Source: Candidatus Eiseniibacteriota bacterium (lineage in GTDB: Bacteria > Eisenbacteria > RBG-16-71-46 > JABDJR01). From it: a stretch of DNA of 64,000 bases. Every line of letters begins with the position of its first letter. The first letter of the stretch is position 1. Below the pieces are notes generated by a model. That model made no database searches, was not told the DNA's origin, and saw nothing but the letters and a program-made list of their open reading frames with translations. Location of the stretch: NCBI GenBank assembly GCA_963783375.1, contig CAWANH010000029.1, positions 416,001 to 480,000 of the forward strand, written 5' to 3'. Of this stretch, positions 18,484 to 27,164 are shown in pieces. Both the position numbers and the translations under genes were made by a program.

Positions 18484-21023
18484 AGCAGACGATTCTGCGC
18501 CGGCCGGCGGGGTGGGCCCCGGCGGCGCTCGTGGCGATGCTCATCCTCGGTACCGGGGCCCGGGCGGTCGCGGCCCCGATCCCCGCTCCCCCGGGGGCCG
18601 GATCCGGACTGCTCCAGACCCTGGCCCGCAGCGGAGTGGGCTGGACCGCCGGTCCGGACCGGCCCGCGGCCGGAGCGCGGACCGTCGCCGCCGTGACCCC
18701 GGTTCGCGTGCTGATTCGGGGTACGGTGGATCCCGCGGCCATCGTGGCCCGGGGGGGGCGGGTCTTCACCCGCGCCGGGGAGGTGTTGACCGCGGAGATT
18801 CCCCTGGGAGAGGCCATCGCGCTCACCCGGCTCCCCGGGGTGCGGTTCGTCTCGCTCTCGGCTCCGCTCCACTACGACCTCGACGTGTCGGTGCCCGCCG
18901 TCGACGCCGACACCCTTCGTCAGAGGCTCGGGAAGGACTGGACCGGACTCACCGGAGCCGGGGTGGTGGTGGGCCTGGTGGACAGCGGCCTCGATGTGCA
19001 TCAGCGCGATTTCCAGAATCCCAACGGAACCACCCGGGTCAAGTACTACTGGGACCAGACCGACCTCGAGGGACCGCGACCGGTGGTGGATGGGACGACC
19101 CTCTACGGTACCGAGTGGACCGCGTCCCAGATCGACGCCGGGACCGACCGGACCGCGGACCGGGACGGGCACGGAACCCACGTGGCGGGCATCGCCGCCG
19201 GGAACGGGCAGGCCTCCCAGGTGGACAGCCTCCGCTACCGCTACGCGGGAATGGCTCCGAATGCGGACCTCATCGTGGTCTCCGCGGTCAACGAGTCGGG
19301 GAACGTGATCGACGCGGTGAACTACGTGTTCAGCCGCGCCCAGGCCCTCCTCCGTCCCGCGGTGGTGAACCTTTCCCTGGGCTACCATCTCGGGCCTCAT
19401 GACGGAACCGGTCCGCTGGCCGCCGCCCTGGACGCTCTCGCCGGCCCGGGGAGATTGATCGTGGCCGCGGCGGGAAACGACGGGGACAGCCGGGTCCACG
19501 CCGAGCTTCACGTTCCGGCGGGGGGCAGCGACAGCGCGACGGTCACCATCCCCGCCTACACGCCGCTGATCGGGGAGAACGACTACTTCGCGGTCAACGG
19601 CTTCTACCGGGTCCCCGACTCCCTGTCGGTGACCCTGGTGAGTCCGGCGGGGGCGCGCTACGGCCCGATCCGGCTCGGCGAGGTCCAGACCGATCTCCTG
19701 ACCGACGAGGGGACGGTGTACCTGGCCAACATCGATACCGATCCGGTGGGAACGAACCTGGAGATCCAGATGGATGTGAGCGACTTCGATCCCGGGGGGG
19801 GCGGGGCCGGCCTTCCCCCCGCACCGGGGGAGTGGAGGCTCGTCTTCCGGGACCTGAAGGGGTCTCCCGGCGGGGGAGAGGTCGATCTCTGGATCACCGC
19901 GTCGAACCCCTTTTCCGTCGGCTGGGATCGGGGCTTCGATCCCACCGAGGAGGTGGAGTCTCCCGCGGTGGCCGAGCGGGTGGTGGCGGTGGGGTCGTTC
20001 ACCACCAAGACATGCTGGGTCAAGGCGTCCGGAGAAACCCGGTGCTTCACGAACGTGGCCCCCGAGGACACGGTGTTCGGAGCCATCAGCTTCTTTTCGA
20101 GTCACGGTCCCACCCGGGACGGGCGCCGGAAACCCGAGGTGGTGGCGCCGGGATTCGGGGTGGTCTCGAGCCTCTCCAACCAGATCAGCGACGAGTTGCT
20201 CACCCGGTACCAGATGCCCGAGCGGATGACCCCGGACCTGGAGCACTTCATGTTCGCGGGGACCAGCGCGTCCGCCCCGCATGTGGCCGGGGCCCTGGCG
20301 CTCCTCCTCCAGCGGGATCCCACCACCGATCCCGAAACCGCCCTGGGCAAGCTTGTCGCCTCGGCCCGGACCGACGCCTTCACCGGCCCGACCTGGGACA
20401 CCGCCTCGGGATGGGGAAAGCTCGACACGGCTCGCCTCGTGGCCCCCGACCTGGTGCCGGTCACCGCGCGCGTGCTCCGGATCCTCACCGCGGCCGACGG
20501 GCGGCCCGAACTCCGCTGGCAGGCGGCGGAGGCGGATCCAGTGGTCCGTTTCCGCCTGGAGAGCCGCGGCGCCGGCGATCGGTGGCGGGAGCGGGGAGAG
20601 TTCGACGGTCCGGGGCCGCACCGCTGGATGGATCCCGAGGGAACCCCGGGCGCCGCCTATCGGCTGAGCGCATGGCTGCGGACCGGGGCCTTCACGACCT
20701 GGGCCGAAGGGGTCTGGGCGGGGGAATCGCTTCCCCCGAGACTCGTCCTGGGGCCGGCGCATCCGAACCCGGCCCGGGGCGTGGTGGCGGTCTCCTTTCG
20801 CCTGGCCGGGGCGGCGGCCCGCCGCCTCCAGGCGGAGGTCGTGGATGCGGCCGGGCGCAGGGTATGCTCCCTGGGCGGCATCAAAACGGACGGGGGAGGC
20901 GGGGGCGAGGTGCGGTGGGACGGTCGCGACGCCGCGGGGAGGCCGGCCGCCGCCGGCCTGTACTGGATCCGGGTGCGGACGGGATCCCTGGAGGGGACGG
21001 CGCGGGTGATCCGGTTGCCCTGA
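18480..21023 (+). CDS. Secreted S8 subtilisin-like peptidase with inserted domain and FlgD/T9SS-like C-terminal domain
   Basis: Signal peptide; triad GLVDSG, DGHGTHVAG, AGTSASAPHVAG; C-terminal HPNP...WDGRD...GLYWIRV. Confidence 0.88.
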   Translation: MKQTILRRPAGWAPAALVAMLILGTGARAVAAPIPAPPGAGSGLLQTLARSGVGWTAGPDRPAAGARTVAAVTPVRVLIRGTVDPAAIVARGGRVFTRAGEVLTAEIPLGEAIALTRLPGVRFVSLSAPLHYDLDVSVPAVDADTLRQRLGKDWTGLTGAGVVVGLVDSGLDVHQRDFQNPNGTTRVKYYWDQTDLEGPRPVVDGTTLYGTEWTASQIDAGTDRTADRDGHGTHVAGIAAGNGQASQVDSLRYRYAGMAPNADLIVVSAVNESGNVIDAVNYVFSRAQALLRPAVVNLSLGYHLGPHDGTGPLAAALDALAGPGRLIVAAAGNDGDSRVHAELHVPAGGSDSATVTIPAYTPLIGENDYFAVNGFYRVPDSLSVTLVSPAGARYGPIRLGEVQTDLLTDEGTVYLANIDTDPVGTNLEIQMDVSDFDPGGGGAGLPPAPGEWRLVFRDLKGSPGGGEVDLWITASNPFSVGWDRGFDPTEEVESPAVAERVVAVGSFTTKTCWVKASGETRCFTNVAPEDTVFGAISFFSSHGPTRDGRRKPEVVAPGFGVVSSLSNQISDELLTRYQMPERMTPDLEHFMFAGTSASAPHVAGALALLLQRDPTTDPETALGKLVASARTDAFTGPTWDTASGWGKLDTARLVAPDLVPVTARVLRILTAADGRPELRWQAAEADPVVRFRLESRGAGDRWRERGEFDGPGPHRWMDPEGTPGAAYRLSAWLRTGAFTTWAEGVWAGESLPPRLVLGPAHPNPARGVVAVSFRLAGAAARRLQAEVVDAAGRRVCSLGGIKTDGGGGGEVRWDGRDAAGRPAAAGLYWIRVRTGSLEGTARVIRLP

Positions 21024-21077
21024 GCGTGGGCGGTGAGGGCGTCCCGGCGGGGACGGAATCCTTGAAGGGAGAGCGGC

Positions 21078-21719
21078 ATGAAGGCGCGGTGGTCGACGAC
21101 GGTTGTGCTCTTTACGTTCATGGCGGCGGGGACCGCGGCGGCCGAGGTTCCGCCTCCCCCCAGTCCTCACGTCTACGTGACCCCCACCGTGGGCATCTGG
21201 CGATGGGACGAGAAGGCGGTGGACGGTTCCCGGCTCAACGACCGCTCCGGCCTGGTCTGGGGGGGGCGGGCCGGCTACAGCCCCATCGAGGCGTTCTCGG
21301 GCGAGCTGGTCGTACTCACCGGCACCAACGACTTCCGGCGGGGAGGCGTCGCATTCAGCGCCCGCCTCACCCAGGTGGAGCTTTCCTTCGTGGTGAACTT
21401 CCGCTCCCTGGTCGACGCCCCGGTCTACCCCTTTCTCGACCTGGGCTCGGGGATTTCCGCTCGCCGCGCCGGCACGGGAGGAGAATCGGTGGAGGGGGTG
21501 AACGCCTCGCACCTCGACTTCCATCTCGGAGGGGGCGTCAAGGTGGATCTGGGCCGCCTGATCGGCATCCGCCTGAACGTCCGGGACACCTTCTTCACCG
21601 AAACCCAGGGAAGCGGGGACGCCAGGGACCAGACCACGGTGGACTCGGTCGAACTCTCGGGGGGTCTCGAATACCGGTTCGCGCTGGGGAAGCGTCACGG
21701 TCCCCGCCGGCTCCGCTGA
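21078..21719 (+). CDS. Outer membrane beta-barrel protein (OmpA-like membrane domain)
   Basis: Signal peptide, amphipathic beta strands, ...SGGLEYRF near C-terminus. Confidence 0.72.
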   Translation: MKARWSTTVVLFTFMAAGTAAAEVPPPPSPHVYVTPTVGIWRWDEKAVDGSRLNDRSGLVWGGRAGYSPIEAFSGELVVLTGTNDFRRGGVAFSARLTQVELSFVVNFRSLVDAPVYPFLDLGSGISARRAGTGGESVEGVNASHLDFHLGGGVKVDLGRLIGIRLNVRDTFFTETQGSGDARDQTTVDSVELSGGLEYRFALGKRHGPRRLR

Positions 21720-21752: not shown

Positions 21753-21781
21753 TTGACAAATTCCGAAACAGTTCATAGCTT
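21753..21781 (+). promoter_or_regulatory. Near-consensus sigma70 promoter
   Basis: TTGACA-N17-TAGCTT in an AT-rich patch. Confidence 0.75.
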
Positions 21782-21786
21782 AGAAG

Positions 21787-21966
21787 GTAGTGAGCTGCCC
21801 ACACCGGCCGGTTTGGGGGAGTGTCGGGGTGGCAAGGAAGGGCAAGGCAGCAGCGGTCGGATCCTGTGTTTCTCGACCTCCTTAGCGACAGGAGCCGGCT
21901 GTGTCCCGACCCCGCCCCGACCCCCCCGTTCTTCGTCTGCGCGGGGGCCCCTCCAGGGGGCCTTCG
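21787..21966 (+). ncRNA. Candidate structured small RNA with anti-SD loop (family unassigned)
   Basis: Follows a strong promoter; long imperfect hairpin with loop containing ACCTCCTTA; 3' GC hairpin; no convincing ORF. Confidence 0.5.
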
Positions 21967-22090
21967 TACGCCCCCGAACCTCCGCGAACATCCTCGGGAA
22001 GCCTCGCCCCCCCGTGGGGGTATGTCCCCTGACCCCGGTGAGATCATCTGCTACCATGATGGGTCGGGAGGCTTGGATCGGCTGTTACCC

Positions 22091-22561
22091 ATGACCTGGA
22101 AAATAACCCAACGACTTCTGGCACTGGTCCTGGTCGTGGCTCTCGGAGCCCCTTCCGGCTGTGCGAGCGGACCCAAGACATTGGGCCGAAAGGATCTCGT
22201 CCATCCGGAGCCCGCCCGGGCCTATCACGTTTCTCTCACCGACGGGCGGACGATGACCCTCATCTCCCTGCACCTGGAGGGGGAGTGGTTGATGGGAACC
22301 CAGAGGATCACCGAATCGACGACGGAGGGAACGGGGGAAGAGGCAAGGACCAACGTCACCAACCGGTATGAGGAGGTCAAGATCCCCTGGTCCGAGGTGG
22401 CCGGAGTGGCGGCGGACCGCGGTTCGAACCGGGACTCCTCGGTATTTCTCGCCGGGGCGGCCCTGTTGGCCGGGGTGGCCGCCTTCCTCCTCCTGAGCGG
22501 GAATTCGAACACCGCCCCCACCACCGGGGGTGGCGGAGGCGGAGGCGGAAAAGACTTTTGA
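22091..22561 (+). CDS. Hypothetical lipoprotein with C-terminal hydrophobic helix
   Basis: MTWKITQRLLALVLVVALGAPSGC signal with lipobox-like Cys; extended -10 TGCTACCAT upstream. Confidence 0.65.
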   Translation: MTWKITQRLLALVLVVALGAPSGCASGPKTLGRKDLVHPEPARAYHVSLTDGRTMTLISLHLEGEWLMGTQRITESTTEGTGEEARTNVTNRYEEVKIPWSEVAGVAADRGSNRDSSVFLAGAALLAGVAAFLLLSGNSNTAPTTGGGGGGGGKDF

Positions 22562-22646: not shown

Positions 22647-22979
22647 ATGGCGAAGCATCTGCTCGATCTTTCGGACTCCAACTTCTCGGCGACGCTCGAG
22701 CAGGCGGAGGTTCCGGTGATGGTCGATTTCTGGGCCCCGTGGTGCGGGCCCTGCCGGCTGGTGGCTCCGATCGTGGAGGAACTGGCCGAGAGCTACTCCG
22801 GCCGACTCCAGGTTGGGAAGCTCAACACCGACGAGAGTCCCTCGGTGGCCGCCCAGTACAACATCCGGTCCATCCCCACCCTGCTCTTCTTCAAGAAGGG
22901 CCAGGTGGTGGGCACGGTGATCGGTGCCGTCCCCAAGGACAAGCTCAAGCAGAAGGTCGAAGAGGTCCTGGGCAACTGA
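22647..22979 (+). CDS. trxA: Thioredoxin
   Basis: VDFWAPWCGPC, IRSIPTLLFFK; AAAGGAG SD. Confidence 0.97.
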   Translation: MAKHLLDLSDSNFSATLEQAEVPVMVDFWAPWCGPCRLVAPIVEELAESYSGRLQVGKLNTDESPSVAAQYNIRSIPTLLFFKKGQVVGTVIGAVPKDKLKQKVEEVLGN

Positions 22980-23085: not shown

Positions 23086-23835
23086 ATGATTGCCTGGTAC
23101 GATCGGGCCTTCGGTCCCTGGTACTTGAAGCTCTACCCGCACCGGAACCTCGAGGAGGCGGAGCGGGCGGTGGGCACGATCGATGGGTTCCTGCCCTCCG
23201 GGGGCCGCTGTCTCGACGTCGGCTCCGGGGCCGGCCGGCACCTGGAAGCGCTCCGCCGGCGGGGGTTCGACGCGGTGGGCATCGACCGCTCCTCGGCCCT
23301 CCTCGCCGAGGCCTCGGAGCGGCGGCCGGCGCGCGACCGGTTGGTTCGGGGCGACATGCGCCGCCTTCCGTTCCCCGACCGCGCCTTCGACGCGGTCCTG
23401 AGCATGTTCACGAGCTTCGGCTATTTCGAGTCCCGGGCGGCCCACGCCCGGCTGCTGATCGAGTTCGCCCGGGTCGCCCGGCCGGACGCAGTCCTGGTCC
23501 TGGACTACCTGAACGCGCCCGAGGTGAGGCGGGGGCTCGTCCCCCGATCGAGCCGGCGGGTGGAGGGATACCTGGTGGAGGAACGGCGCCGGATCCTCAC
23601 CCGCTCCGACGACGAGGCGGTGGTGAAGGAACTCACCATCGTCGGTTCCGACGGAGATCCGGAGGAGCGCTACCACGAGGAGGTGGCCCTCTACGACCGG
23701 GACACCCTGATAGCCCTCTGCGCGGGCGCGGGCTGGCGGGAACGGGTGAGTCTCGGAAACTACGGCGGCGCTTCCTGGACGCCCGAATCCCCGCGGCTGC
23801 TCCTGGTGGCCGACCGCGAAGGGCGCGGGCGGTGA
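23086..23835 (+). CDS. Class I SAM-dependent methyltransferase
   Basis: CLDVGSGAGRH motif I, GIDRS, RGDMRRLPF, FDAVLSMFTSFGYF. Confidence 0.88.
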   Translation: MIAWYDRAFGPWYLKLYPHRNLEEAERAVGTIDGFLPSGGRCLDVGSGAGRHLEALRRRGFDAVGIDRSSALLAEASERRPARDRLVRGDMRRLPFPDRAFDAVLSMFTSFGYFESRAAHARLLIEFARVARPDAVLVLDYLNAPEVRRGLVPRSSRRVEGYLVEERRRILTRSDDEAVVKELTIVGSDGDPEERYHEEVALYDRDTLIALCAGAGWRERVSLGNYGGASWTPESPRLLLVADREGRGR

Positions 23836-25343
23836 AGTCGCCGCTCGCATCGCGGCCGCTTCCGGACCCGGTCCCCGAGCGCCTGTACGCCGATAGCCCC
23901 GGCCCCAAACACCTTGCCGCAGAACTCCTGGACCGCTGGCGGGAGAGCCTGGGACGTTGGGACGCTCCCGGTCCGGTCCGCGCCGCTCTCGACCGGCTGG
24001 CCGATCCGGAGACCGCGGTGGTGGTGACCGGACAGCAGCCCGGGGTCTGGGGAGGGCCGCTCTACTGCGTGTACAAGGCGGCCACCGCGGTCGAGACCGC
24101 CCGGCGGATCCAGGCCGAGACCGGCCGCACCGCGGTGGCGGTGTTCTGGATCAACGCCGACGACACCGACTGGGACGAGGTGGGGTGGGGAACCCTGCCG
24201 CGGCCCGACCTCGATCTCTACCGCACCCGCTGGAAGACCTCGCCGGTGGGTTCCCGGCGCTGGGTGGGCGGGGCCCGGCTCGCCCGTCCCGAGGGGGCGG
24301 GCGAACTGTTCGCGGCCTGGGGCGGCGGGGGACCGCTTCTCGGCGCCCCGATCACCGAGGAGCCGGCGGAACTGGGCGATTCCTTCGCCCGCGGTCTCCT
24401 GACCTGGTTCGGTGATCGCGGCCTCATCCCCCTGGATGCCCGCTGGCCCGAGGTGCGGGCGGGTGGGGAGCGACTCTGGTCGCGTTACCTCCCGCGTCAC
24501 TCGGCCATCGCGGGCGAGGTGCTGGCCGAGGGGGAAGCCCTGGCGGCGGGGAGCGGCGCGCCCTCCCTGGACGCTGAGGCGGCCGACCACGGGCTGTTCC
24601 TGCTCGAGGGGGACCGCCGCATGGAAATCGACCCGGACACCTGGGACGCCGAAGTGGGAGCGCGGCTGGAGGCGGGACGGGCCGCGGAACTCGCGCCCTC
24701 GGTGCTCCTTCGGGCGCCGCTCCAGGATCATCTGTTCGGCACCGTCGCCCACGTGGTGGGGAAGGGCGAGGCCGCCTACCTCCGCCAGCTGGCCCCGGTC
24801 TACCAGGCGCTCTTGATCCCTCCTCCGATCCGCCTTCCGCGGCTCCACGCCACCCTGGTTCCCGAGGGGCTCCTTCCCCTCGAGCGGGCGGCGGGGATCC
24901 TCGTCGATCCCGAGAGCTGGCTGGCCGAGCGGGCCCGGGAGCGGGTTCCCGATCGCGCGCTCCGCATCCTGGGGGAGGCGCGCGGCGGCGTGGCCGACCG
25001 GCTGCGCGATTTCGCCGAGGCTTCGGCGGAGTTCCAGAAGGACGTGGGGGACCTCGCCGAGTCCGCCCGCCGCAAGATCGACGGCCAGCTCTCCCGGCTG
25101 GAGGAGAGCCTGGACCGGCGGGCCCGCCAGGATCTCTACCGGGACGAGCCGGCGCTCCGCGGGCTCCCCGAGTTCCTCCGCCCGCGGCGGGAAGACCAGG
25201 ATCGGGGTCTCTCCGGCGCCACCCTGGCCCTGGCCTGGGGCGATGAGGCCCCCCGGCGGGTGCTCGCCTCGGCCCGGGCCCACCTCGACCGGCTGGCCGA
25301 GGGAACGCTCCACCACTTTGTCCTGGAGGGTCCCCGTGTCTGA
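23832..25343 (+). CDS. bshC: Bacillithiol biosynthesis cysteine-adding enzyme BshC
   Basis: VVTGQQPGVWGGPLYCVYKA, VFWINADDTDWDEV, PSVLLRAPLQD, GKGEAAYLRQL; bsh context. Confidence 0.85.
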   Translation: MKSPLASRPLPDPVPERLYADSPGPKHLAAELLDRWRESLGRWDAPGPVRAALDRLADPETAVVVTGQQPGVWGGPLYCVYKAATAVETARRIQAETGRTAVAVFWINADDTDWDEVGWGTLPRPDLDLYRTRWKTSPVGSRRWVGGARLARPEGAGELFAAWGGGGPLLGAPITEEPAELGDSFARGLLTWFGDRGLIPLDARWPEVRAGGERLWSRYLPRHSAIAGEVLAEGEALAAGSGAPSLDAEAADHGLFLLEGDRRMEIDPDTWDAEVGARLEAGRAAELAPSVLLRAPLQDHLFGTVAHVVGKGEAAYLRQLAPVYQALLIPPPIRLPRLHATLVPEGLLPLERAAGILVDPESWLAERARERVPDRALRILGEARGGVADRLRDFAEASAEFQKDVGDLAESARRKIDGQLSRLEESLDRRARQDLYRDEPALRGLPEFLRPRREDQDRGLSGATLALAWGDEAPRRVLASARAHLDRLAEGTLHHFVLEGPRV

Positions 25344-26055
25344 CGTCCTCGCCATCGCCCCCCATCCCGACGACATCGAGCTTTCCGCCGGAGGCACGGT
25401 GGCGCGGTTGGCCGCCGCCGGGCGCTCGGTGGTGATGGTGGATCTCACCGCGGGGGAGCGCGCGACCCGCGGCACCCCGGCGATCCGGGCCGGGGAAGCG
25501 GCGGCCGCCGCCGACGCCCTGGGGGCGGCGGGGCGCGAGGGGCTGGGGTTTCCCGACGGCGGTCTCTCCCGGCGGGACCCCGATCAGATGAAGGCGGTGG
25601 TGGAGGCGATCCGTCGCCACCGTCCGCGGCTCCTGATCGGGATGCACTGGAACGACGACCATCCGGACCACGTGGAGGCGGGGAGGATGGTGCGCCGGGC
25701 CGCTTACCTGGCCGGTCTCCGGAACTTCCCCGAGCCGGGCCGGGAGCCCCACCGGCCGGCGCGCGTGCTCTTCGCCATGGGACGGCGCCCGTTCGTTCCC
25801 TCCCTGGTGGTGGACGTTACCGCCGCCTACGACACCAAGCGCCGGGCGGTTGAGGCCTATCGAAGCCAGTTCCATCGCGAACCCGGCGATGCGCTGGTGA
25901 CCCCGATCTCCGAACCGGAGTTCCTCCTCCGGATCGAGGCTCGCGACCGGTACTTCGGAGGGATGATCGGGGCCCGGTTCGGCGAGCCCTTCTTCGAGGT
26001 GGGACCGGTGGCGGTCCGGACGGCGGCGGCGCTCATGGAGGAGGACCCGCATTGA
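25336..26055 (+). CDS. bshB1: Bacillithiol biosynthesis deacetylase BshB1
   Basis: PHPDDIELSAGGT, DLTAGE.TRG, DHPDH, AYRSQF. Confidence 0.88.
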   Translation: MSDVLAIAPHPDDIELSAGGTVARLAAAGRSVVMVDLTAGERATRGTPAIRAGEAAAAADALGAAGREGLGFPDGGLSRRDPDQMKAVVEAIRRHRPRLLIGMHWNDDHPDHVEAGRMVRRAAYLAGLRNFPEPGREPHRPARVLFAMGRRPFVPSLVVDVTAAYDTKRRAVEAYRSQFHREPGDALVTPISEPEFLLRIEARDRYFGGMIGARFGEPFFEVGPVAVRTAAALMEEDPH

Positions 26056-27164
26056 GAGTCGGAATTTCCTGCTATCCCACCGAGGGGGGGAGCGGGGTGG
26101 TGGCCACCGAACTGGGCAAGGCCCTGGCCCGCCGAGGGCACCAGGTGCACTTCATGACCTCGAGCGTGCCGGTCCGGCTCCGGAGCTTCGAGGAGAACAT
26201 CTTCTTCCACGAAGTGCGCCCCGAGAACTACCCCGTGTTCCTGTACCCACCCTATTCCTTGTCCCTGGCCGCAAAAATGGCCGAGGTGGCCACGGCCTAC
26301 GATCTGGACGTCATTCACGCCCACTACGCCATGCCCCACGCCGCCTGCGCCTACCTGGCCCAGCGCATGCTACGGAAGCAGAAGGTGAAGACGGTGACCA
26401 CCCTCCACGGCACCGACATCACCCTGGTGGGGCAGGCCCCGTCCTTCTACCCGGTCACCAAGTTCTCGATCGAGGAGTCGGACGCGGTGACCGCGGTGAG
26501 CGCGTGGTTGCGCGACGAGACCCATCGGATCTTCCACACCGACCGTCCCATCCACGTGATCCCCAATTTCGTGGACAGCGACACCTTCCATCCCGGACGG
26601 AGCCGGGCCAAGCGATGCCAGCTGGCCGCCGATGACGAGAAGATCATCCTCCACATCTCCAATTTCCGGCCGGTCAAGAACCTGCCCGCGGTGGTGCAGG
26701 TGCTGGAAGGCGTGCGCCGCCGGGTCCCCGCCCGGTTGGTGATGGTGGGGGACGGCCCCGAGCGGATCCCCACCGAACGCCTGGCGCGGGACCTCGGACT
26801 GGCCGAGCACGTGGCGTTCCTGGGAAACCAGGAGTTCGTCGAGGACATCCTGCCCCTGGCCGACGTCTACCTGCTTCCCTCCCTCCACGAGAGTTTCGGG
26901 CTCACCGTGCTGGAGGCGATGGCGGTGGGGGTGCCGGTCATGGCCACCAACGTGGGGGGGACGCGCGAAGTGGTGGTGGACGAGACGACCGGATTTCTTC
27001 GCGATCCCCACGACGTGGAGGGGATGGTGGCCGCGCTGGTGCGGCTCTTCACCGACCCGTCCCTGGCGAAGCGCATTTCCGAGGCCGCGACGGCCCGGAC
27101 CCGGGAGCACTTCCAGGTGGAGCACATCCTGCCCCGCTACCTGGAGGTCTACGGGGATTGCTGA
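26052..27164 (+). CDS. bshA: N-acetyl-alpha-D-glucosaminyl L-malate synthase BshA
   Basis: GISCYPTEGGSGVVATELG, HAHYAMPHA, TTLHGTDITLVG, HISNFRPVK, ESFGLTVLEAM. Confidence 0.95.
   Translation: MRVGISCYPTEGGSGVVATELGKALARRGHQVHFMTSSVPVRLRSFEENIFFHEVRPENYPVFLYPPYSLSLAAKMAEVATAYDLDVIHAHYAMPHAACAYLAQRMLRKQKVKTVTTLHGTDITLVGQAPSFYPVTKFSIEESDAVTAVSAWLRDETHRIFHTDRPIHVIPNFVDSDTFHPGRSRAKRCQLAADDEKIILHISNFRPVKNLPAVVQVLEGVRRRVPARLVMVGDGPERIPTERLARDLGLAEHVAFLGNQEFVEDILPLADVYLLPSLHESFGLTVLEAMAVGVPVMATNVGGTREVVVDETTGFLRDPHDVEGMVAALVRLFTDPSLAKRISEAATARTREHFQVEHILPRYLEVYGDC

Follow-up and report, generated by a model that had tools for sequence, protein, structure and literature searches.

A conserved structured RNA of an Eisenbacteria order with a loop complementary to the ribosome-binding site of a predicted secreted-protein mRNA

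Loop-borne anti-Shine-Dalgarno RNAs and the Eisenbacteria locus

The occlusion of Shine-Dalgarno (SD) sequences by a C-rich loop of a small RNA (sRNA) is an already well-known mechanism, and abundant envelope proteins are repressed by sRNAs such as MicA and MicL. In S. aureus, RsaE and RNAIII carry an unpaired C-rich loop motif for which pairing with SD sequences is predicted, and they are described as Hfq-independent (PMC2790875). Among the cuckoo RNAs of Alphaproteobacteria, NfeR1 is likewise Hfq-independent and presents in its loops an anti-SD motif starting with CCUCCU; this motif, CCUCCUCCC, is repeated in three redundant hairpins, and the target sets are reported to be very large (10.1101/2025.11.14.688489). 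In Vibrio, the sRNA VrrA represses ompA (PMC2628432).

Here, we describe a locus of an Eisenbacteria genome, lying in a window of 64,000 nt (the whole stretch of DNA that was analysed), in which an earlier note had proposed an unassigned sRNA able to sequester SD sequences. The conservation of the element, the covariation of its stems, the lack of any Rfam match and a conserved, predicted, trans-encoded SD complement support this proposal, and the feature is regarded as a putative promoter-driven, structured sRNA with an SD-pairing loop. In common with stand-alone non-coding genes it has its own promoter pattern (13/13 homologous loci) and no conserved ORF; in common with anti-SD sRNAs it has a conserved C/U-rich seed, unpaired in a loop according to predicted accessibility, and complementarity in trans to a ribosome-binding site in 9/9 assembled orthologues, over 9–17 contiguous pairs. 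The cmscan comparison with Rfam suggested by the earlier note assigned the RNA to no known family: there were no matches at the gathering score over the window, and only five chance miRNA matches at E ≤ 10 over the region.

The likeness to RsaE and RNAIII lies in the unpaired, conserved C-rich loop with predicted SD pairing; unlike them, this RNA has no Rfam match and no UCCC in the loop, offers a 13-nt seed in one loop instead of short UCCC boxes, and, in another phylum, forms one long rod that no clear intrinsic terminator follows. With the cuckoo RNAs, AbcR1 and AbcR2 it shares an anti-SD motif that starts with CCUCCU and sits within a hairpin loop; however, the presence of CCUCCUCCC in several loops, typical of NfeR1, was not found, as the RNA has one loop with CCUCCUUAG and no Rfam match, and its single CCUCCUUAGCGA loop is extended in a target-specific way and has one match that is deeply conserved. 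VrrA-type sRNAs, compared by description only, are similar in that the present RNA, too, is predicted to act on the 5' region of an exported envelope protein and to repress it, whereas here the promoter is sigma70-like and the target is a TWG-tail protein of predicted cohesin fold.

Other classes were considered and rejected. 6S RNA (RF00013; 46.4 bits, ~187-nt rod with a central bubble) is also a long rod, with a sigma70-type promoter and a single copy, but the present RNA is shorter, has its conserved letters in the apical loop and gives no match to the model at E ≤ 10. The true 6S was found by cmscan elsewhere in the genome (80 bits; L012:1227-1407, minus strand, corresponding to G000:C29, ~533224-533404), directly after zapA, and the gene on its other side is presumably ymdB-like; the whole-genome look-up had missed this 6S, and therefore its blanks for RNA models are weak. 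The bacterial small SRP RNA (RF00169) has no model match here and is encoded elsewhere in the genome. A CsrB/RsmZ-type sponge is not consistent with the lack of an invariant GGA and of a detectable CsrA in this 97%-complete genome, nor a type I antitoxin with the lack of a conserved short ORF nearby and with a match that is a 230-aa exported protein 65 kb off.

Table 1. Coordinates of the features (window positions, unless a contig or locus is named)
Feature	Position	Strand	Basis or remark
Upstream neighbour, outer-membrane beta-barrel gene (PF13505)	21078..21719	+	syntenic in 8/8 family genomes
Sigma70-type promoter	-35 TTGACA 21753-58, 17-nt spacer, -10 TAGCTT 21776-81	+	sequence; pattern common to 13/13 loci
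Predicted sRNA, ~149 nt	21788..21936	+	start placed ~7 nt past the -10, end placed at the U-rich tail
Variable 5' leader	21788..21814	+	holds the proposed switch strand 21798-21808 (not conserved)
Rod	21815..21926	+	outer stem 21815-32 with 21912-26, short middle helix, inner stem 21854-67 with 21888-901
Unpaired internal-loop motif GGCAGCAG	21846..21853	+	conserved
Seed ACCUCCUUAGCGA, in and beside the apical loop	21876..21888	+	complementary to the SD region of the G000:C29:372213-372905 gene
U-rich tail behind the outer stem, candidate 3' end	21928..21936	+	U-rich in most homologues, weak in G003
GC hairpin	21943..21962	+	genus-restricted, probably outside the conserved RNA
Extended -10 promoter (TGnTAnnnT) of the downstream gene, TGCTACCAT	22049..22057	+	sequence
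Downstream neighbour, small lipoprotein-like gene	22091..22561	+	no Pfam or NCBIfam match
Thioredoxin gene, after the lipoprotein-like gene	22647-22979
Predicted target gene	G000:C29:372213-372905, outside the window	minus
Target leader	L114:1492-1657 (leader of G000:C29:372905)	minus	no Rfam match

Distribution, fold and extent of the RNA

The RNA is present at the same locus in 10/10 genomes of this Eisenbacteria order, namely 8/8 of the family and 2/2 of a sister family. BLAST detected it in six of the seven other family genomes, the seventh being recovered by synteny, and a covariance model built from the sequences of the eight family genomes (R1) matched the locus with 147 bits, as a single copy in the genome. 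Four metagenome loci fetched by the upstream protein alone contained the whole RNA in three cases, scoring 74–80 bits with a model built without them, and in the fourth the sequence was cut inside the RNA. Both sister-family genomes carry a diverged RNA, flanked by mutS and by the lipoprotein gene seen in the family; the promoter pattern is unchanged, the rod is longer and the loop reads GCCUCCUUAGCGA. The homology of this RNA is based on synteny, promoter and motifs, because the model scores only 14–15 bits on it. In a 151-genome sample of the phylum the model retrieved the family members and one weak match (24.6 bits, G102); since it missed the sister family too, more distant forms of the RNA may exist. 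The weak match lies in another family, at L057:800-917 on the minus strand. Among 16 bshC-flanking regions from other families only two contained the RNA, both of the same order. An exact-pattern scan gave 27 matches in genome contigs, seven of them family members and 20 without promoter and rod, and none in viral contigs, and no phage or plasmid matches were found for the element.

The surroundings of the RNA differ between the two families. In the family, genes for an S8 peptidase with a FlgD-Ig tail and for the beta-barrel protein (window 18486-21719) lie between mutS and the sRNA; in the sister family these genes are missing at that place and the promoter directly follows mutS. In G004 the beta-barrel gene (L020/L022, G004:C2:156142-156772) is split into two frames (residues 8-110 and 108-213), by a frameshift or an assembly error. 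Further downstream, window positions 23832-27164 hold a bacillithiol-type cluster with a BshC domain, a PIG-L deacetylase and a GT4 glycosyltransferase, for the latter two of which the names bshB1 and bshA are presumed; a BshC homologue is present in 60/81 genomes of the class.

The earlier note had asked for homologues, covariation and loop conservation, and on all three points the 13 loci collected agree with a structured RNA. When the 11 family-type sequences are aligned with MAFFT, 87.5% of the cells pair, and changes on both sides occur in 13 of 33 pairs (8 of 12 in the inner stem); the covariation score was reached by none of 500 shuffles and slid controls were far lower, with a structure derived from 8 of the 11 sequences and a test that ignores kinship. 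Stem covariation that includes G.U pairs argues for an RNA, not for an untranscribed DNA element. In the loop, CCUCCUUA is kept at 13/13 loci and the full 13-nt seed, with A or G allowed at either end, in 10/13 RNAs, while the internal-loop motif varies to GGCAGCGG in two homologues and to GGCACCGACAG in the sister family. It is likely that a small RNA is made from this folded element, which is conserved throughout one order.

The three stems of the rod were located correctly from the start (21823-32/21912-21, 21854-60/21895-901 and 21862-67/21888-93), with ACCTCCTTA in the apical loop at 21876-84, and the predicted fold has these three stems, with the loop open, the opening of ACCUCCUU costing 0.2 kcal/mol by predicted accessibility. 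Against shuffled sequences the whole 191-nt interval folds no better (z -1.07), whereas the 119-nt rod, with boundaries picked after seeing the fold, reaches z -3.38; z is at or below -2 in 9 of the 13 homologues. The GC hairpin that had been taken for the 3' end is limited to this genome and, in altered form, to its closest genome, G002, so this assignment was dropped. The conserved element ends in the U-rich tail near 21928-36 and is therefore about 145–150 nt long, not 180 as proposed at first. No ORF is conserved in the region on either strand at the 13 loci; a small ORF, or a minus-strand gene with TAAGGAGGT as its SD, was considered, and none is conserved.

As for the promoter, its boxes and spacer are where they had been reported, and TTGAC(A/G)-N17-TAnnnT precedes the RNA at 13/13 homologous loci; the description as near-consensus was too generous, the -10 TAGCTT agreeing with the consensus at just 3/6 bases and a consensus-based scan finding no site at the sRNA locus. 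The promoter call is thus supported by the conservation of the pattern across the 13 loci and not by the scan.

Target gene and specificity of the pairing

In this genome (G000), ACCTCCTTA or its complement occurs five times, and one of these sites, some 65 kb away, serves as the SD of a gene (Table 1) whose mRNA reads UCGCUAAGGAGGU, the exact complement of the 13-nt seed, with its end 8 nt ahead of the AUG. The reverse complement of the loop, TCGCTAAGGAGGT, covers the SD of this gene in 9/9 genomes with the start assembled, while in G002 the contig ends inside the gene; a pattern search of the order found CGCTAAGGAGG ahead of this orthologue in 9/10 genomes, and retrieved three further SD sites, two of which belong to genes for other TWG-tail proteins. 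Pairing falls on the SD itself, 7–10 nt upstream of the start codon. The comparisons establish a conserved promoter pattern, a covarying rod, a conserved loop and, in two families, a 13-nt complement over the SD of the orthologue.

The product is a protein of 230 aa with an N-terminal segment resembling a signal peptide and a C-terminal TWG tail, as read from the alignment. It has no NCBIfam match, Pfam Cohesin appears only below threshold, and its Atlas neighbours are unnamed clusters of Eisenbacteria and Krumholzibacteriota. An AlphaFold2 model from 42 homologues (pLDDT 91.6) has cohesins as best Foldseek matches (2vo8, E 2.8e-6, TM 0.49/0.63), and the target is thus predicted to be a secreted protein of cohesin-like fold, an assignment that comes from Foldseek alone and does not imply dockerin binding. 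A TWG-type tail ends 62 of the 3,630 called genes. The cohesin-fold subfamily of the target has 13 copies here and 4–28 per genome in the order; at E<1e-25 it is found in 10/10 genomes of the order and in 1/61 others. The gene ranks 149/3,484 for codon bias, a weak proxy in this genome, and its stop codon is followed by a hairpin and a U-run.

Between cognate seeds and targets the contiguous pairs, G.U counted, are 13 in G000, G001, G003 and G009, 11 in G004 and G006, 17 in G005, 14 in G008 and 9 in G007, with a net binding, accessibility considered, of -7 to -17 kcal/mol across genomes. The lowest value is that of G007; in G004, G006 and G007 the sRNA has lost 2–4 of the 3' pairs while the target site is unchanged. 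Where the seed changes from A to G, at position 1 (G008, G009, L061) and position 13 (G003), a G.U pair remains; only such one-sided, G.U-keeping changes occur, and two-sided compensation between seed and target was not found. Seed and target are nearly invariant, and the pairing is therefore deduced from their co-conservation, within two related families only; the ten genomes of the order, being kin from these two families, do not count as ten independent events.

Several comparisons bear on whether the match is a chance product of a strong SD. The target forms the sole 13-bp Watson-Crick helix with the loop among the 3,630 called genes, which are crude calls, and the next-longest match, of 11 bp, also belongs to a TWG-tail gene. 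For 112 AAGGAGG sites, 0.03 would be expected to carry the 5-nt extension on the basis of column frequencies. In the 30 nt that precede the start, the longest word shared by the nine target orthologues is the 13-nt seed complement, whereas leaders of 12 ribosomal-operon genes, encoding better-conserved proteins, share words of just 3–5 nt; this control set is small, 19 other candidate frames having been dropped for lack of a start or for too few genomes. Fifteen paralogues from the same genomes make 5–11 pairs with the loop. The 13-mer is found in 10/10 genomes of the order against 10/196 other genomes of the class, and none of its 11 outside sites belongs to a target orthologue or has the promoter; a look-alike loop in G011 was discarded, as it lies inside a coding gene. 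The conserved block of the target leader within the family is ~28 nt, longer than the seed, and therefore something else constrains it too. A second pairing site in the target for the internal-loop motif was sought and rejected, the tests being not significant: against the region just upstream of the SD the motif shows no preference for its cognate and falls in the top 7–52% of 1,156 null windows, and against codons 9–14 it falls in the top 1% in G000, G001 and G009 and not in the other six.

Our preferred reading, with a probability of roughly 0.6, is that of an Hfq-independent, trans-acting sRNA of ~150 nt that represses the distant secreted-protein mRNA at its ribosome-binding site. The RNA would be transcribed from the conserved promoter and end near 21936, and its stable rod would hold the seed unpaired, making Hfq unnecessary; in fact, neither Hfq nor CsrA nor ProQ was found in this 97%-complete genome, in which an RNase III gene and two KH-domain genes of KhpA/B type are present. 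Pairing would nucleate at the anti-SD core CCUCCUU, and the additional AGCGA would single out the target among the ~112 AAGGAGG-type sites. The duplex, of about -14 kcal/mol net and 9 nt short of the AUG, may then exclude the 30S subunit, perhaps followed by decay through RNase III, while the conserved internal loop probably contacts a protein. As the loop matches a ribosome-binding site, the sRNA would probably switch off the synthesis of a surface protein. Among the next-best loop matches are the TWG-tail genes at G000:C28:1099610 (plus strand, 11 bp) and C29:1349176 (minus strand, 10 bp), a hint that the loop may also act on a small number of other TWG-tail mRNAs that match it nearly, as secondary targets.

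The strongest competitor, although unlikely, is a broad-spectrum anti-SD sRNA of cuckoo or AbcR type, which would damp many mRNAs with strong SDs, the conserved gene being one of many. By duplex energy the target ranks only 9/3,630, or 10/3,615 with accessibility (the best 450 being rescored), so a prediction in a single genome does not single it out; more than 20 genes lie within 3 kcal/mol of its accessibility-corrected score, and the anti-SD core is nearly fully open. The core is also intact in all 13 RNAs, whereas the 3' extension erodes in three, and additional CGCTAAGGAGG SDs occur in G004 and G005. Among genes with at least 10 bp to the loop TWG-tail genes are 3/5, compared with 0/6 when the 16S tail is the query, these numbers being small. 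Large target sets are, moreover, described for NfeR1 and AbcR1/2 (10.1101/2025.11.14.688489). On the other hand, the 5 nt beyond the anti-SD, kept in 10/13 RNAs and 9/9 target sites, would be needless for a generic SD binder, and the RNA has a single loop rather than several redundant ones.

Remaining alternatives and biological meaning

We consider it very unlikely that the RNA is a cis-acting leader or attenuator of the lipoprotein and thioredoxin genes, co-transcribed with them from the upstream promoter. The RNA does precede the lipoprotein gene on the same strand and in the same order at all 13 loci, and a terminator scan called no strong intrinsic terminator at the sRNA end. However, the extended -10 that had been noticed before the downstream gene is indeed there and, read by eye, recurs at 13/13 loci, the spacer is not conserved, and the perfect match to the loop lies elsewhere in the genome. 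A conserved alternative fold coupled to the downstream gene, as in riboswitch or attenuator leaders, was not found: the switch once suspected through the 5' strand was abandoned, since the alternative pairing is 20 kcal/mol less stable than the main fold and G005, G006, L062 and L063 (the latter two from metagenomes), 4 of the 11 family-type sequences, lack the strand.

No better are the chances of a protein-binding RNA, acting either as a scaffold built on the internal loop or as a decoy that draws factors or nucleases away from the 16S tail they recognise; the mRNA match would then be incidental. Era and toxins that cleave the anti-SD are candidate binders of RNA resembling the 16S tail; the rod is long and stable, its invariant unpaired GGCAGC has no significant partner in the target, and the loop is identical to the 16S tail over 8 nt. 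In particular, the 16S gene of this genome ends ...GATCACCTCCTTTCT, and the loop therefore shares ACCUCCUU with it and then diverges, continuing with AGCGA. It leaves the 16S tail exactly where the match to the target mRNA goes on, so that 5 of the 13 seed-target pairs fall outside the 16S anti-SD, and it lacks the GAUC that precedes the anti-SD in 16S. The AGCGA extension fits the mRNA and not the rRNA, and an incidental match, expected ~0.03 times, should not persist over two families. Of the 16S 3'-end mimic proposed in the earlier note, the 8 shared nucleotides hold and the mimicry finds no support, as the loop then follows the target.

Even slimmer is the chance that the roles are reversed, with the target leader titrating or stabilising the sRNA as a sponge, or that pairing times translation without lowering it. 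The leader is 155–177 nt long and structured; its own promoter stands at a fixed distance in 9/9 genomes, and in the family a closing stem is conserved as well. A site of simple repression would need less than this, and the leader may itself act as a regulatory RNA; pairing on the SD so close to the start codon, however, normally blocks initiation, judging from the systems described in PMC2790875. The sister-family leaders (L126:1492-1660 and L120:1494-1648, both minus strand) contain another SD-like stretch, GGAGGTGAT, which no start codon follows, and a hairpin holding a segment partly complementary to the real SD.

The slightest probability goes to a housekeeping RNA that has diverged, such as a second copy or piece of 6S, SRP RNA or tmRNA, or to a DNA element that is not transcribed, as suggested by the rod shape and by the whole-genome look-up that at first gave no 6S, because canonical 6S, SRP RNA and tmRNA are all elsewhere in the genome and none matches here even at E ≤ 10, and the covarying stems speak against a DNA element.

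Returning to a trans-acting repressor, a more elaborate version is speculative and rather unlikely: a dedicated RNA pair may have arisen with the order-specific cohesin-fold expansion, the 5-nt extension turning the anti-SD, the most promiscuous of seeds, presented by a rod that needs no chaperone, into a one-gene selector that sets the level of the principal scaffold of a TWG-tail surface system, and the internal loop binding a protein partner in a lineage that lacks Hfq, ProQ and CsrA.

The RNA is a new family, neither RsaE/RNAIII nor NfeR1/AbcR, given that it has no model match, one loop and a different motif, and it is likely of a known mechanistic kind. A literature search on small and non-coding RNAs of Eisenbacteria, which did not extend to the supplementary tables of RNA-motif surveys, returned nothing on this RNA or its target. 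What the locus adds, in a phylum that is uncultured and for which no regulatory RNA was found described in the literature, is thus a new sRNA family and, with it, a specific target open to testing. For such a test the organism need not be cultured, as the sRNA and the target leader can be brought together in vitro or in a laboratory reporter strain. Furthermore, the match marks one of about 60 exported proteins with a TWG tail as apparently regulated throughout the order, and in this way provides a handle on the envelope biology of Eisenbacteria.
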